Positions 1 through 26,944 of a stretch of DNA of 30,727 bases are shown here, one piece after another (within the stretch, counting starts at the first letter, position 1; each line of letters opens with the position of its first letter). Source of the DNA: a virus. The notes below the pieces were generated by a model, which had not been told where the DNA came from, did not search any database, and saw nothing but the letters and a program-made list of their open reading frames with translations. The stretch lies in the UHGV virus genome UHGV-0157886. One strand, given 5' to 3'. Position numbers and translations under genes: made by a program.

Positions 1-838
1 TCGTGTAACCATACTGATCTTTAAGATCTGCGGTAATCTCATCGTCTATGATGCTGAATTCTAATTTCCAGTTCAGCGGCCTACGCGTACCACTGACATG
101 CCTGGAAATATGAGACAGGTAGCTTTTTTTCCCTCCGGCCAAAATGTAACGCGAGGTTATTTCTGTCACTATGCCGACTGCAGCAGGAGTAACACGATAA
201 ACAGCCCCATTAATCCTGACAAAGTTTGAAATGGTTTTTATCTCATACCCGACAGACATGTCCAAGCGAGAGCTGTCATATTTGCCATTAGCGAGATCTG
301 TAACATACATTGCGTTGTCGATGTTATCAGGCCTAACTACCCCACTATATAAGTCTTGCACATATTTTTTTGTTACAGCATCCTGAGAGTTCTTCGGATC
401 GGCCAAATTGGAAATTCTGTTTTGCTTTGCATCGTAATATTTTGCAAGCAAAGATGGTTTCATCAATGCACGTCTGAACCACCCAAAACATCGCTGGATC
501 AGCATCGTCAGGTAGTCAAATGCATCTTCATGAACTTCGGGGAAAAATTTTCCCTGATTGCGAAGATCAGTCTCCTGCACCACATCAAGCACACGCTCTA
601 TCGTGATTCGCCAGCCAGCAGCAAGCGGCGACGGAAGAACCACTGCACCGCCACTATAAGTTCCCGCCCCTGTTACTGTATAACCAGCATCCAGCACTAG
701 TTCTGTTACGTTACCGTTAAGGTCAGACACCTGAACAACCAGGTCGGATTTTTTGAAAATACGGAAGGTATACGGAAATGATGTCGTAACGCCGTTACCT
801 GTGTATTCGTTGTGGTCAACTTCGGTTGAGACCGTCAT
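1..838 (-). CDS. Tail fibre / tailspike, N-terminal part only (ORF open to the left window edge); T7 gp17-like N-terminal particle-binding domain
   Basis: ATG at 838-836 preceded by GGAG (rc of 846-849). Reading frame is open for about 279 codons to position 1; the supplied ORF track lists no minus-strand ORF here, consistent with no stop before the edge. Translation starts MTVSTEVDHNEYTGNGVTTSFPYTFRIFKKSDLVVQV and contains RISNLADPKNSQDAVTKKYVQ, which matches the pattern of the T7 gp17 N-terminal domain as I remember it. Last gene of the virion operon. Confidence 0.65.
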   Translation of the reverse strand, partial: MTVSTEVDHNEYTGNGVTTSFPYTFRIFKKSDLVVQVSDLNGNVTELVLDAGYTVTGAGTYSGGAVVLPSPLAAGWRITIERVLDVVQETDLRNQGKFFPEVHEDAFDYLTMLIQRCFGWFRRALMKPSLLAKYYDAKQNRISNLADPKNSQDAVTKKYVQDLYSGVVRPDNIDNAMYVTDLANGKYDSSRLDMSVGYEIKTISNFVRINGAVYRVTPAAVGIVTEITSRYILAGGKKSYLSHISRHVSGTRRPLNWKLEFSIIDDEITADLKDQYGYT

Positions 839-942
839 GTTAAATCTCCAGATAGTCGCAGCACCCGTTGCGCCGCATATCTGGTTATTCTATTACCTGA
901 AAAACCACATATGGATAGAAAGACTGTGAATATGAACAGATA

Positions 943-957
943 TTACCTTTCGGGTAA
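943..957. promoter_or_regulatory. Operator-like inverted repeat TTACC-N5-GGTAA (site 1), upstream of the tail fibre gene
   Basis: Perfect TTACCtttcgGGTAA with A/T flanks; an AACCACATA box lies at 903-911. Same motif recurs at the other transcription-unit heads. Confidence 0.5.
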
Positions 958-994
958 TTTGCAAAACGTGCTGGATAGCAAACAAATTATTTGA

Positions 995-1014
995 TACTGT
1001 ATAAATATACAGTT
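995..1014. promoter_or_regulatory. LexA (SOS) box overlapping a promoter
   Basis: TACTGTATAAATATACAGTT matches the E. coli LexA consensus TACTGTATATATATACAGTA at 18 of 20 positions, with CTGT-N8-ACAG intact. TTGATA at 991-996 is a possible -35. Lies 20 bp upstream of the ORF at 1034. Confidence 0.7.
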
Positions 1015-1033
1015 ATTGCATGGAGAAGATAAG

Positions 1034-1291
1034 ATGCAGCAGTATCACTATCCACTGGAAGACGGATTTACCGAAAGGATCCACACGCCGGGAGGCGTCA
1101 GGTCACTGGTGGAGGGATCGCACTTGATGAAATTACTCCGGGATCTCGATAAGGATGGATTTAATGTCGATGGCCCACTTGCCGAACTGACTGCACTGAT
1201 TAACTACGTCACCAGCTCACAGATGTCTATGCGGGATCTGCAAACACATCTCGACTATTGTGCCGAACAATTACGAAAACAAACCACATAA
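1034..1291 (+). CDS. Small soluble protein (85 aa) under the LexA box; candidate SOS-induced antirepressor
   Basis: ATG at 1034 with GGAGA 8 nt upstream (the ORF-track start at 1016 is a TTG). Plus strand, convergent with the virion operon. Acidic/charged 85-aa product, no TM segment. Function is inferred from context only. Confidence 0.5.
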   Translation: MQQYHYPLEDGFTERIHTPGGVRSLVEGSHLMKLLRDLDKDGFNVDGPLAELTALINYVTSSQMSMRDLQTHLDYCAEQLRKQTT

Positions 1292-1297
1292 AGAAAA

Positions 1298-1313
1298 GGC
1301 CGCGAAAGCGGCC
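1298..1313. terminator. GC hairpin GGCCGC-GAAA-GCGGCC between convergent genes; probable bidirectional intrinsic terminator
   Basis: Perfect 6-bp GC stem with GAAA loop. The minus-strand transcript would be followed by UUUUCUUUA (rc of 1289-1297); the plus-strand U-tract is weaker. Confidence 0.5.
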
Positions 1314-1314
1314 T

Positions 1315-1326
1315 GTGACATGTCAC
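1315..1326. repeat. Perfect 12-bp palindrome GTGACATGTCAC, copy A
   Basis: Identical 12-mer also at 18528-18539 and 20793-20804. Overlaps the stop codon of the 98-aa membrane ORF. Confidence 0.8.
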
Positions 1327-1619
1327 GTTCCTTTTCTGAATGATAGCCGTTCGAAAAATGATGACATTCCACCGCAGACAATAGCAAAGATGATCCCACC
1401 AAAGAAGAGAAGGCCAGCCTGCCACCACTCCCACCGCCATACATCCACAGCACCAACCATACCAACAATCGCTCCAACAAATGGAATATAGCTCACGATG
1501 AAAGCAATGGGGGCTGCAATTATCCAGTGCAATCCCCACCATGATTCAAGCCCAGCCATAATTGCTGCCAACTGAAAAAGACCAACGACGATATAAACAA
1601 TGAATCCTATAGCTTGCAT
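1323..1619 (-). CDS. Small integral membrane protein (98 aa, 3-4 predicted TM helices); holin-like or membrane moron candidate
   Basis: Strongly hydrophobic translation (MQAIGFIVYIVVGLFQLAAIMAGL...). ATG 11 nt after the stop of the preceding small ORF. Followed by the terminator hairpin. Confidence 0.55.
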   Translation of the reverse strand: MQAIGFIVYIVVGLFQLAAIMAGLESWWGLHWIIAAPIAFIVSYIPFVGAIVGMVGAVDVWRWEWWQAGLLFFGGIIFAIVCGGMSSFFERLSFRKGT

Positions 1620-1631
1620 GTAGTCACCTAT

Positions 1632-1805
1632 TTACCCAGTAAAAATCAGAGGCCTCCCCTCAATAAGGCTTGCAACAAGAACTATTCCCTGCACAACAAA
1701 GATGAACCAGCAAATAGCTTGAGTCTGAGGGTTAAGAAAATATTTGTAGCGGTCAATAAATAACAACCCACCAGAAATTATCACACTCAAAATAATTAAA
1801 AACAC
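1632..1805 (-). CDS. Small membrane peptide (57 aa, 2 hydrophobic segments), GTG start; not in the ORF track
   Basis: My translation of the minus strand: GTG at 1805 preceded by AAGGAAG (rc of 1810-1816), open to TAA at 1634-1632. Product (M)FLIILSVIISGGLLFIDRYKYFLNPQTQAICWFIFVVQGIVLVASLIEGRPLIFTG. Below the 60-aa track cutoff. Confidence 0.35.
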   Translation of the reverse strand: MFLIILSVIISGGLLFIDRYKYFLNPQTQAICWFIFVVQGIVLVASLIEGRPLIFTG

Positions 1806-15599: not shown

Positions 15600-15896
15600 T
15601 CACTCCTGTTCACTGGCCTCTTTGGCCATCTTCAAATACTGTTCAGGGCAATGCGCCATAACGCGCTGAAACAGTTCCAGCGCCAGATTGCGTTGCCCCT
15701 CATTAAATGCCATTGCCATAGCATCCATCGGAGAGATAGCGGAAAACACCCGGCCTTTCTCCAGCACAGACCAGACAACGCGACGCCCCTGTTCACTGCT
15801 CATGACAAAGCGAATGTCATCAATTTCACGCTGTGCCATGTCACGTTGCTTACGGGCGTTTTCTTCTTTCAGTTGATCGTCTTCGTAATCTGTCAT
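15600..15896 (-). CDS. Hypothetical head-assembly protein (98 aa) between portal and scaffold
   Basis: Start overlaps the portal stop (ATGA at 15893-15896). Charged helical translation. Confidence 0.45.
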   Translation of the reverse strand: MTDYEDDQLKEENARKQRDMAQREIDDIRFVMSSEQGRRVVWSVLEKGRVFSAISPMDAMAMAFNEGQRNLALELFQRVMAHCPEQYLKMAKEASEQE

Positions 15897-17793: not shown

Positions 17794-17883
17794 ATCAATG
17801 ACTCCGTACGCAATTAAATTATTACCAATTTAACCACATATGATTTATTTATCGTAGATAGTTGACATTTAACGCACAAATTA

Positions 17884-17898
17884 TTACCTTTCAGGTAA
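17884..17898. promoter_or_regulatory. Operator-like inverted repeat TTACC-N5-GGTAA (site 2) in the portal / tRNA intergenic region
   Basis: Perfect TTACCtttcaGGTAA. TTGACA at 17862-17867 sits 17 bp upstream on the plus strand; AACCACATA at 17832-17840. Confidence 0.5.
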
Positions 17899-18220
17899 CT
17901 AAAGAGTTCATTCCGGTTGCTAACCTGACTGGCTTGTCGTTAAATTGAACAGGTGGAGTGAGCTTTTGTTTTGAGCAGTACGGCGTATGGCACATGCGCC
18001 GATAGCGGTCTGGATACGTTTAAGGGGCACCCTCCCTTGCTCGGGCAAACGAACCAGGTAGCCGGAATGTGCAAGTCGAGCGGTTTTATTCCGCGCACGG
18101 GGATTCACCATCCCGGCGATTCGGTGTGACGCCTCGGAAGAGACGAGGGTACAACGATGAGAGCATTTATGGAGCCGCGACAAAGTGTGGCGCCTTAACA
18201 GGCTAAGTGCTCTCAGCGTT

Positions 18221-18297
18221 GTGGCATTAGCTCAGTTGGACAGAGCAACCGCCTTCTAAGCGGTTGGTCGCAGGTTCGAATCCTGCATGCCACGCCA
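18221..18297 (+). tRNA. tRNA-Arg, anticodon UCU (reads AGA), CCA encoded
   Basis: Manual cloverleaf: acceptor GTGGCAT / ATGCCAC, D-arm GCTCAGTTGGACAGAGC, anticodon stem ACCGC / GCGGT with loop CTTCTAA, T-arm GCAGG-TTCGAATC-CTGC, discriminator G, CCA at 18295-18297. Confidence 0.85.
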
Positions 18298-18527: not shown

Positions 18528-18539
18528 GTGACATGTCAC
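18528..18539. repeat. Perfect 12-bp palindrome GTGACATGTCAC, copy B
   Basis: Identical to copies at 1315-1326 and 20793-20804. Lies just downstream of the large terminase stop. Confidence 0.8.
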
Positions 18540-20792: not shown

Positions 20793-20804
20793 GTGACATG
20801 TCAC
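20793..20804. repeat. Perfect 12-bp palindrome GTGACATGTCAC, copy C
   Basis: Identical to copies A and B. Overlaps the stop codon of the 115-aa ORF upstream of the packaging operon. Confidence 0.8.
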
Positions 20805-23758: not shown

Positions 23759-23761
23759 GAT

Positions 23762-23838
23762 TTACCTCTGAGGTAATTAAAAACCACATAAGACACGAAA
23801 TCAATAGATTTTAGAATATTTTATTACCTAACAGGTAA
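23762..23838. promoter_or_regulatory. Two perfect TTACC-N5-GGTAA sites (23762-23776 and 23824-23838) flanking an AACCACATA box (23782-23790) and a minus-strand TTGATT-N17-TTTAAT promoter-like element
   Basis: The proximal site overlaps the Shine-Dalgarno sequence (GAGG) of the DUF1064 gene. Confidence 0.5.
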
Positions 23839-23875
23839 TTGTCGAGGCGTAAAAAAATGCGCTATCGCGCTGGTA

Positions 23876-25821: not shown

Positions 25822-26052
25822 TCATGAGTAGAAGAAGTATGCCAGTTCTGCTTTTGAGCGCAGCCATTGTCTTGATTTACAGGCTTTAAAAAGCCCATCC
25901 ATCAATACCTTACCTGGCATTTTGCGCTTACCTGTTAAGTGAGTCTGGATATAGTGACTCGTCGTTCCGGCTTCCTGTGCGAAGGCTTCACGCTCATCCG
26001 GAGTAAGTGCAAGCCAGTGCTTTTTGAAATCGAAATGTCCGTTATCGCTCAT
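25822..26052 (-). CDS. Cro-like small regulator (76 aa), divergent from the repressor gene
   Basis: Small basic protein with a putative HTH (FAQEAGTTSHYIQTHLTGKR). Transcribed divergently from the CI-like gene across an operator cluster. Family not recognised with certainty. Confidence 0.45.
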   Translation of the reverse strand: MSDNGHFDFKKHWLALTPDEREAFAQEAGTTSHYIQTHLTGKRKMPGKVLMDGLFKACKSRQWLRSKAELAYFFYS

Positions 26053-26088: not shown

Positions 26089-26151
26089 TCACCTATAAGG
26101 TAACAAAAATCAAGGATAGTTACCCATGAGGTGCATTTACCTGTTGGGTAA
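26089..26151. promoter_or_regulatory. Immunity operator cluster: three 15-bp inverted repeats (26089-26103 TCACC-N5-GGTAA; 26120-26134 TTACC-N5-GGTGC; 26137-26151 TTACC-N5-GGTAA) between cro and cI
   Basis: OR1-3-like arrangement in the 154-bp divergent intergenic region. Half-site TTACC/GGTAA is shared with the sites elsewhere in the genome. Confidence 0.6.
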
Positions 26152-26206
26152 TATTGCTTTAAATTGAATCATCTTCTGATTCAGATATGAGGCGATTTTC
26201 CAGAAA

Positions 26207-26791
26207 ATGAAAAGTATCCAGGACGTCCGCAGGCAAAATCTCAACGACTTGATCGACCGTGAATTCAATGGTGTTCAGACGCGGATGGCAGAAAAACTTG
26301 GAACTCAGGCAAATCTGGTAAACCGCTGGGCTCTTGGCAAGAAGGTTATCGGCGACCAGGTTGCACGAAAAATTGAAGCTGCCGCCAATAAACCACGTAA
26401 CTGGCTTGATATCGATCGCTCGCTTTCTCAGGAGGGTTTTCAGCCTGTCGGACCAAGCGACATTGGTCAGCTGGCGGCTCACAACCTGGAACGCTGGATG
26501 AGCGAAAGCCGCGACCTTTCAACACAGGGAAAACTTCACCGCGCATCCGGCGTAGCCCAGGTGACAATCAGCCGCCTGTTAAACAATGAGGTCAGCGTTT
26601 CCATTTCCACCCTGGAGAATGTTGCATCCGCATTCGGGCGTCACGGATATGAATTACTGATTCACCCGCACGACCCTGCGACTATCAACTATGACCGCTC
26701 GCGCTACGCATTGTTACCCGAAACCGAGAAAGCAAAGATCGAAAGTTACATTGAATTTGTCATCAACCAGAACGAAAAAAATAAACAATAA
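26207..26791 (+). CDS. CI-like repressor (194 aa) with two HTH-like segments and no S24 peptidase / autocleavage domain
   Basis: HTH_XRE-like segment QTRMAEKLGTQANLVNRWALGKKVIGDQVARKI and a second HTH-like segment ASGVAQVTISRLLNNEVSVSISTLENVASAFG. No Ala-Gly/Ser-Lys protease motifs. No Shine-Dalgarno sequence (possibly leaderless, like lambda cI from PRM). Confidence 0.55.
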   Translation: MKSIQDVRRQNLNDLIDREFNGVQTRMAEKLGTQANLVNRWALGKKVIGDQVARKIEAAANKPRNWLDIDRSLSQEGFQPVGPSDIGQLAAHNLERWMSESRDLSTQGKLHRASGVAQVTISRLLNNEVSVSISTLENVASAFGRHGYELLIHPHDPATINYDRSRYALLPETEKAKIESYIEFVINQNEKNKQ

Positions 26792-26836: not shown

Positions 26837-26848
26837 TTGCCATCAAGA

Positions 26849-26925
26849 TTACCTTATGGGTAATTTTTTTAACTCATATCTATTGACATCAAACCAAATA
26901 CGCATAATCATTACCCCAACGGTAA
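26849..26925. promoter_or_regulatory. PL-like early-left promoter region: TTGACA -35 (26883-26888) flanked by two perfect TTACC-N5-GGTAA sites (26849-26863 and 26911-26925)
   Basis: Operator / -35 / AT-rich -10 region (CATAATCA) / operator arrangement directly upstream of the first early-left ORF. The -10 spacing is ambiguous. Confidence 0.5.
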
Positions 26926-26944
26926 CAGACCGAGGTAACAAATT

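Follow-up and report, generated by a model that had tools for sequence, protein, structure and literature searches.

The window analysed, i.e. the whole 30,727-nucleotide stretch of virus genome UHGV-0157886, contains near its left end a small plus-strand gene (ant) with the tailspike gene on one side and the late genes on the other, both on the minus strand, and thus running against its neighbours as the first-pass annotation had stated. The features of this region are as follows:

1 to 838, minus strand: 5' part of the tailspike gene, an open frame from the ATG at 838 to the window edge
887 to 915, minus strand: putative late-promoter block CATATGTGGTT-N5-GGTAATAGAAT, upstream of the tailspike gene and conserved in seven phages
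942 to 958, no strand: predicted Rep operator ATTACCTTTCGGGTAAT, a perfect copy between the tailspike gene and ant
972 to 1000, plus strand: candidate ant promoter, with -35 TGGATA (972–977), a 17-nt spacer and -10 TACTGT (995–1000)
995 to 1014, no strand: LexA (SOS) box TACTGTATAAATATACAGTT, matching the consensus at 18 of 20 positions
1022 to 1025, plus strand: Shine-Dalgarno sequence GGAG of ant, eight bases before the ATG and invariant in a seven-phage alignment
1034 to 1291, plus strand: ant, with an ATG start, encoding an 85-aa ortholog of the antirepressor Ant of phage SPC32H (match to PDB 5D50 chain E)
1297 to 1314, minus strand: intrinsic terminator hairpin GGCCGC-GAAA-GCGGCC, supported by a terminator scan, by folding and by its conserved stem

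In relatives of the phage, the counterparts of the gene at 1–838 are annotated as tailspike or tail fiber. Over the ant region, DNA identity is 94–98% with Escherichia phages phiV10, YDC107_2, TL-2011b and their relatives and about 77% with the Salmonella ε15-like phages, and these phiV10- and ε15-like relatives all belong to the genus Uetakevirus. In addition, 491 bases of the ant region were found in 544 of 5,426 complete E. coli genomes, nearly always in the chromosome. Based on the DNA identity to Uetakevirus and on this occurrence in E. coli, the window can be assigned to an ε15/phiV10-type (Uetakevirus) temperate podovirus prophage of E. coli.

These phages have a common gene order, consisting of the last late genes, a terminator, ant on the opposite strand, a regulatory region of about 195 bp and the tailspike gene, which is found in the window, SPC32H, ε15, 65FD and BUCT554. 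In phiV10 and BUCT711 extra genes are inserted downstream of ant, and the window has a gene for a 98-aa membrane protein there. The position of ant is fixed throughout the genus, while the true morons adjoining it vary.

When the 85-aa protein was compared with the Protein Data Bank, one entry matched: 5D50, in which Rep and Ant of Salmonella phage SPC32H were solved together as a complex. Residues 2–85 align with residues 3–86 of chain E ('Anti-repressor protein', E 4.6e-47), and 73 of the 84 aligned residues (87%) are identical. The earlier statement that this protein has no nameable homolog was therefore wrong. The orthologous genes are annotated as ant and rep in the GenBank record of SPC32H (KC911856). 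By tblastn (E ≤ 1e-5), Ant homologs were detected in 35 phage records, every one of which also has a Rep homolog. Functional labels are largely missing for this protein: it is called 'hypothetical protein' (WP_001188255.1) by RefSeq in the one E. coli prophage inspected, its group in PHROG (450) is labelled 'unknown function', and neither Pfam nor NCBIfam has a model for it. No Pfam ANT, Bro-N, KilA-C or P22_AR domain was detected in Ant at E ≤ 0.1; residues 27–75 weakly match the C-terminal end of PHROG 1760, 'anti-repressor' (E 6.6e-7).

The cognate repressor gene and its surroundings lie toward the right end of the window:

25822 to 26052, minus strand: Cro-like regulator divergent from rep (phrog_35 'transcriptional repressor', E 8.7e-13)
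26136 to 26152, no strand: predicted Rep operator in the cro-rep intergenic region, from the motif search
26207 to 26791, plus strand: rep, encoding a 194-aa prophage repressor without an autocleavage domain (match to PDB 5D50 chain A)
26848 to 26864 and 26910 to 26926, no strand: predicted pair of Rep operators, 62 bp apart, downstream of rep

The CI-like protein encoded at 26207–26791 matches chain A of 5D50 ('Repressor', E 4e-42; residues 1–190 aligned, 43% identity) and also 5D4Z, the C-terminal half of the repressor (E 4.1e-20). By segment, identity to SPC32H Rep amounts to 54% for the DNA-binding domain at the N terminus, 33% for the helix-turn-helix (HTH) domain in the middle and 48% for the last 40 residues, and the window Rep is 100% identical to the phiV10 repressor. 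With Pfam, an HTH_3 domain was found at residues 106–147 and a weaker Cro/YdaS-type HTH at residues 21–61, and no Peptidase_S24 domain was detected, in agreement with the earlier description of a CI-like protein with two HTH-like segments and no S24 domain. We call the product of 25822–26052 Cro-like on our own reading of its position divergent from rep.

At ≤2 mismatches, the window contains 11 copies of the palindrome ATTACC-N5-GGTAAT, versus 0.7 expected. The pair downstream of rep flanks an early promoter (TTGACA...CATAAT), a second pair, likewise 62 bp apart, is located at 23761 and 23823, and further copies are present upstream of the terminase gene and of a gp3-like gene. Phage ε15 carries the same motif, and in RefSeq its syntenic sites are labelled 'repressor, lysogeny', the one syntenic to 942–958 being annotated 'protein_bind repressor, lysogeny'. 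Since ε15 shares both the motif and its annotated positions, we conclude that these copies are probably Rep operators.

On the minus strand upstream of the tailspike gene, the operator is followed after 28 nt by CATATGTGGTT and, 5 nt further, by GGTAATAGAAT. Upstream of the gp3-like gene, also on the minus strand (near 17840–17815), an operator is followed after 40 nt by CATATGTGGTT and, 4 nt further, by GGTAATAAT. Since this operator-plus-promoter layout is repeated, the operator at 942–958 most likely belongs to the late promoter of the tailspike gene, leaving roughly 960–1033 as the ant control region. Control of ant by Rep through 942–958 was considered as the main reading and was rejected, as the layout of operator and CATATGTGGTT...GGTAATA recurs before the gp3-like gene.

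The two proteins of the module have diverged to different extents from their SPC32H counterparts (87% identity for Ant versus 43% for Rep). This would be compatible with a module that is LexA-controlled but whose Ant is not the antirepressor, or not the sole one, of the resident phiV10-type Rep, so that induction might require some other factor and Ant might work mainly on other prophages in trans; in phiV10, a Bro-N 'antirepressor-like' gene has been added immediately downstream of ant. We consider this improbable, since Ant and Rep occur together in 35 of 35 Ant-bearing phage records and Rep retains its length, its domain order and the operator motif of ε15. The window, moreover, lacks the Bro-N gene, so that Ant is the only antirepressor candidate seen in it. 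A conserved Ant/Rep system is favoured by the operator motif in common with ε15, by the unchanged domain layout and by the fact that the two proteins always occur together, and the far greater divergence of Rep is the main residual doubt about it. The same disparity suggests that Ant may induce co-resident relatives in trans.

The sequence TACTGTATAAATATACAGTT at 995–1014 differs from the LexA consensus TACTGTATATATATACAGTA at two positions, with CTGT-N8-ACAG intact, which confirms the 18/20 match noted in the first-pass annotation. It is the sole match at ≤3 mismatches in the 30.7-kb window, and no site at this threshold appeared in 100 dinucleotide-preserving shuffles of the window; the match is far beyond chance. 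Its heterology index is 1.2, compared with 1.0–10.0 for the 26 known E. coli SOS boxes from which the index was built and 10.6 for the next-best site in the window. The site has the properties of an E. coli SOS box, namely CTGT-N8-ACAG, an AT-rich spacer and a low heterology index. A second exact CTGT-N8-ACAG is present at 924–939, with a heterology index of about 10.9 and in a stretch that varies among relatives and E. coli prophages; it was treated as a chance occurrence or, at best, a weak strain-specific LexA site.

The box ends 19 nt before the ATG of ant. In an alignment of the tailspike-ant intergenic regions of seven phages, with Escherichia, Salmonella, Enterobacter and Klebsiella as hosts, it lies at an equal distance from the ant start in all seven. 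TACTGT and TATACAGT are kept in the box, while the spacer and the flanks vary. The box is conserved in phiV10, SPC32H, ε15, 65FD and BUCT554, and Klebsiella phage BUCT711 alone has a change in one half-site (ATGT for CTGT). It can also be aligned position by position with the box of SPC32H, which is the one altered in SPC32N. In the 3.2-kb locus compared, SPC32H and SPC32N differ by two bases, one in the tailspike gene and one changing ACAG to AAAG in the LexA box, at the position that corresponds to C1010 of the window. Kim & Ryu (2013) reportedly found that the two genomes differ by only two nucleotides overall and that the box mutation causes constitutive Ant synthesis and lytic behaviour. 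The box difference agrees with this phenotype and was counted in favour of control of Ant by LexA.

A perfect Rep operator 37 bp upstream of the box would suit the view that the LexA-like sequence arose as a palindrome by chance and that ant is constitutive or under the control of Rep only. This is hardly credible, given that i) none of the 100 shuffles contained a comparable site, ii) the relatives have kept the box but not the sequence on either side of it, iii) the operator layout is common to another late promoter, which assigns that operator to the tailspike gene, and iv) mutation of the box in SPC32N has a published phenotype.

The box had been described as sitting over the promoter of ant. 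A consensus scan upstream of ant found no promoter reaching 9 of 12 consensus matches, while homology and weaker hexamers agree with the description. In a conservation-weighted hexamer search, the -10 element overlapped the LexA box in all six of the top-ranked candidates and was wholly inside it in five. One pair, TGGATA/TACTGT, is identical in 6 of the 7 aligned phages, and its -10 hexamer is the first hexamer of the box. The candidates from this search are only moderate, the TGGATA/TACTGT pair lying below the threshold of the consensus scan. We infer from these data that the LexA box overlaps the ant promoter.

The hairpin at 1297–1314 starts 6 nt after the ant stop codon; across relatives its stem is conserved and its loop varies. 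Its counterparts in ε15 and phiV10 are annotated as late-operon terminators, on the late strand. The hairpin reported earlier (1298–1313) therefore exists, with the qualification that it should be read first of all as the late-operon terminator, since its T-tract is on the minus strand. On the ant strand, the hairpin is followed by the 12-nt sequence GTGACATGTCAC and then by a T-rich run, with no U-run directly adjoining it. Since GTGACATGTCAC separates the hairpin from the T-rich run, termination of ant transcripts may be incomplete, and read-through from ant, which would be antisense to the late genes, is possible.

Such read-through bears on the alternative raised in the first-pass annotation, that the gene is an SOS-induced moron unrelated to prophage induction, possibly acting by antisense transcription into the late genes. 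With no U-tract after the hairpin on the ant strand, read-through antisense to the gene of the 98-aa membrane protein would be possible, and PHROG 450, Pfam and NCBIfam assign no function to Ant. In contrast, the protein is 87% identical to an antirepressor that was co-crystallised with its repressor, and ant keeps its place across the genus while the true morons beside it vary. The homology to the SPC32H antirepressor largely refutes the moron interpretation, which we regard as very improbable.

Taken together, these data make it very probable that the locus serves as the module by which a phiV10/ε15-type prophage is induced in the SOS response, and that it is an ortholog of the SPC32H Ant/Rep system. 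The earlier proposal of a LexA-repressed antirepressor acting on a non-cleaving repressor is supported, as Ant and Rep are both full-length homologs of the 5D50 pair, the LexA box is placed as in SPC32H, and SPC32N differs in that box by one base. For SPC32H, Kim & Ryu (2013, J Virol 87:11775) and Kim et al. (2016, PNAS 113:E2480) reportedly established the repression of ant by LexA and, after SOS induction, the removal of the uncleavable Rep from its operators by tetrameric Ant. For several Salmonella prophages including SPC32H, one paper describes an antirepressor that, following LexA self-cleavage, blocks the lytic repressor by protein contact (PMC7380047). Other papers state that Rep binds DNA as a tetramer and that tetrameric Ant binds two Rep dimers and breaks this tetramer (PMC9638917), that Rep forms tetramers and binds Ant through one and the same C-terminal domain (PMC9986798), and that Ant is a conformational antirepressor, which acts by trapping a non-functional conformation (bioRxiv 10.1101/2025.11.27.690993).

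By analogy, Ant and Rep of the window would act like the SPC32H pair, under the control of E. coli LexA and with an Ant-Rep interface that is assumed to be conserved. In a lysogen, host LexA bound to the box at 995–1014 would keep ant silent because the box would cover the -10 region of the ant promoter, and Rep would occupy the ATTACC-N5-GGTAAT operators at the early and late promoters. Upon DNA damage, activated RecA would cause the self-cleavage of LexA, and ant would be transcribed. The 85-aa Ant, as a tetramer, would then bind the C-terminal domains of Rep dimers and capture their N-terminal DNA-binding domains, so that the Rep tetramer would leave its operators uncleaved and the lytic genes would be turned on.

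Judged at the sequence level, the module fits the SPC32H-type Ant/Rep family on every criterion; its small protein (SPC32H-type Ant, about 86 aa) is a full-length homolog of SPC32H Ant, and its Rep, lacking an S24 autocleavage domain, aligns end to end with SPC32H Rep. SPC32H belongs to the same genus and shares with the window the gene order, the offset of the LexA box and an Ant that is 87% identical, as well as a Rep composed of two HTH domains and a C-terminal tetramerisation/Ant-binding domain with no S24 peptidase. The ATTACC-N5-GGTAAT operators of the window match those of ε15, a congener of SPC32H, SPC32H itself having been scanned at the ant-tailspike site only. Compared with SPC32H, the window phage has E. 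coli in place of Salmonella as its host, a Rep of only 43% identity, an Ant shorter by one residue, the box spacer ATAAATAT instead of ATGTTTAT, and the gene of the 98-aa membrane protein downstream of ant. These differences leave the kind of system unchanged.

Several other phages use comparable switches. Like ant, the tum gene of phage 186 is repressed by LexA, lies away from the immunity region and encodes a product inactivating a non-cleavable CI. The p95/tum box of 186, TACTGTATGTTTATACAGTA, is identical to the ant box of ε15, and the annotated -10 element of p95 is a TACTGT starting the LexA box, which is the layout proposed here for ant. Tum differs from Ant in its length (146 aa), its annotated similarity to DinI and its origin from a P2-like myovirus, and in a single BLASTP comparison no significant homology was detected between the two (E 0.066 over 46 residues). 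Ant therefore probably works like Tum without being a member of the Tum family.

In Gifsy-1 and Gifsy-3 of Salmonella, GfoA and GfhA were reportedly identified by Lemire et al. in 2011 as small LexA-controlled antirepressors of uncleavable repressors, and PMC7380047 cites the Gifsy antirepressors alongside SPC32H Ant. Unlike the window phage, the Gifsy phages are lambdoid siphoviruses, and it is by phage type that Ant is set apart from their antirepressors; Gifsy names are absent among the 35 tblastn hits (E ≤ 1e-5), from a collection that may lack Gifsy records. The gp30 Ant of N15, the Ant of P22 and the Bro-N/KilA-C proteins resemble the present Ant in inactivating a prophage repressor by protein-protein contact, with no significant homology between Ant and N15 gp30 Ant in BLASTP (E 1.5). 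By the Pfam and BLASTP results, Ant does not belong to these large antirepressors. The logic of a LexA-repressed antirepressor for an uncleavable repressor is also shared by AntC of N15.

The system found here is already known, since its close ortholog in the same genus has been characterised and crystallised, and the function proposed in the first-pass annotation is correct but not new. It adds little to the biology, since the disassembly of an uncleavable Rep by a LexA-controlled Ant was reportedly described for SPC32H genetically in 2013 and structurally in 2016. The remaining gap is one of annotation: Ant is 'hypothetical' in the RefSeq prophage inspected, of 'unknown function' in PHROG 450 and without a Pfam or NCBIfam model. 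The gene is carried by about 10% of the complete E. coli genomes, and naming it would make the prophages concerned, among them phiV10-type phages of O157:H7 and of further pathogenic E. coli, recognisable as inducible by SOS via an antirepressor, which is relevant to prophage induction triggered by antibiotics.

The sequence GTGACATGTCAC beside the terminator is the only recurring 12-nt perfect palindrome in the window. Exact copies are located at 1315, 18528 and 20793, three in total versus about 0.002 expected from length alone. Each copy overlaps or follows a stop codon, 1–40 nt upstream of an intrinsic terminator, and the copy at 1315–1326 abuts the terminator common to ant and the late operon. 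In ε15 and SPC32H all three syntenic places carry an exact copy, as do the two that are reached by the linear record of phiV10, and the copy at the late-operon terminator is exact in 65FD, BUCT554, Klebsiella phage BUCT711 and an E. coli chromosome. In phiV10 and BUCT711, where extra genes lie between ant and the late operon, it remains at the late-operon terminator, and it is therefore a feature of the late operon and not a part of ant. A literature search for GTGACATGTCAC returned no papers. The sequence resembles matS (GTGAC-RNY-GTCAC), being one base shorter. It could be a protein or RNA site gating read-through among the late operon, the tailspike gene and ant, which such read-through would transcribe in antisense. 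We think it unlikely, however, that the ant locus holds such an undescribed layer of control beside the LexA-Ant-Rep switch.

The ant locus (window 1034–1291, plus strand) was found in 544 of 5,426 complete E. coli genomes. Ant represents an annotation gap: no model for it was found in Pfam or NCBIfam, its family PHROG 450 is labelled 'unknown function', and in the inspected E. coli prophage (L009, 3195–3452) its RefSeq name is 'hypothetical protein' (WP_001188255.1). Residues 27–75 (window 1112–1258), i.e. the C-terminal two-thirds of Ant, match PHROG 1760 'anti-repressor' (E 6.6e-7). The part of PHROG 1760 matched is its C-terminal end (positions 177–225 of 232). The alignment suggests that larger antirepressors also carry the Ant fold as a domain.

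The tailspike and gp3-like genes share an upstream layout, consisting of a Rep operator, a gap of 28 or 40 nt, CATATGTGGTT, a further 4–5 nt and GGTAATA(G/A)AT:

887–958, minus strand, layout upstream of the tailspike gene
17815–17899, minus strand, layout upstream of the gp3-like gene

The shared arrangement suggests one type of late promoter for both genes, controlled directly by Rep. Rep operators also occur in pairs in the window, spaced exactly 62 bp centre to centre:

23761–23777 and 23823–23839, Rep operator pair
26848–26864 and 26910–26926, Rep operator pair

The spacing is identical in ε15 (32554/32616 and 35906/35968) and fits a tetrameric repressor bridging two sites.

A second exact CTGT-N8-ACAG, GACTGTGAATATGAACAGAT, lies at 922–941, 73 bp upstream of the main LexA box. 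With a heterology index of about 10.9 it is weak as a LexA site, and phiV10, SPC32H and ε15 lack it. The stretch holding it is variable among E. coli prophages, and the ε15 record annotates the corresponding stretch as an IHF site. GACTGTGAATATGAACAGAT is probably a chance match or a weak strain-specific site. In the Klebsiella phage vB_KpnP_BUCT711, a sewage isolate, the left half-site of the ant LexA box (L005, about 1455–1475) is ATGT instead of CTGT, a change reminiscent of the box mutation in the SPC32H variant SPC32N, and this might loosen LexA control.

The slot that separates ant from the late-operon terminator is an insertion hotspot for accessory genes. In the window the positions concerned are:

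1323–1619 and 1632–1805, minus strand, accessory slot downstream of ant

The 98-aa membrane protein just downstream of ant belongs to PHROG 3075 (unknown function) and has a weak holin-like Pfam match; the same slot is occupied by a Bro-N gene in phiV10 and by a DUF2335 gene in BUCT711.

Only one 12-nt palindrome, the perfect GTGACATGTCAC, recurs within the window:

1315–1326, 18528–18539 and 20793–20804, exact copies
15833–15844, copy with one mismatch

It is exactly conserved across the genus at three syntenic places, with copies in ε15 (2142, 19517 and 39612), SPC32H (2145, 19634 and 38629), phiV10 (2262 and 19493) and BUCT711 (2967). All copies sit at 3' ends of transcription units, each with an intrinsic terminator 1–40 nt downstream. 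A literature search for GTGACATGTCAC found no paper with the sequence. The palindrome is similar to matS, although shorter by one base.

A tRNA gene separates the terminase genes from the portal-side genes, on the strand opposite to the late genes:

18221–18297, plus strand, tRNA-Arg (anticodon TCT)

SPC32H carries a tRNA-Arg in the syntenic position.
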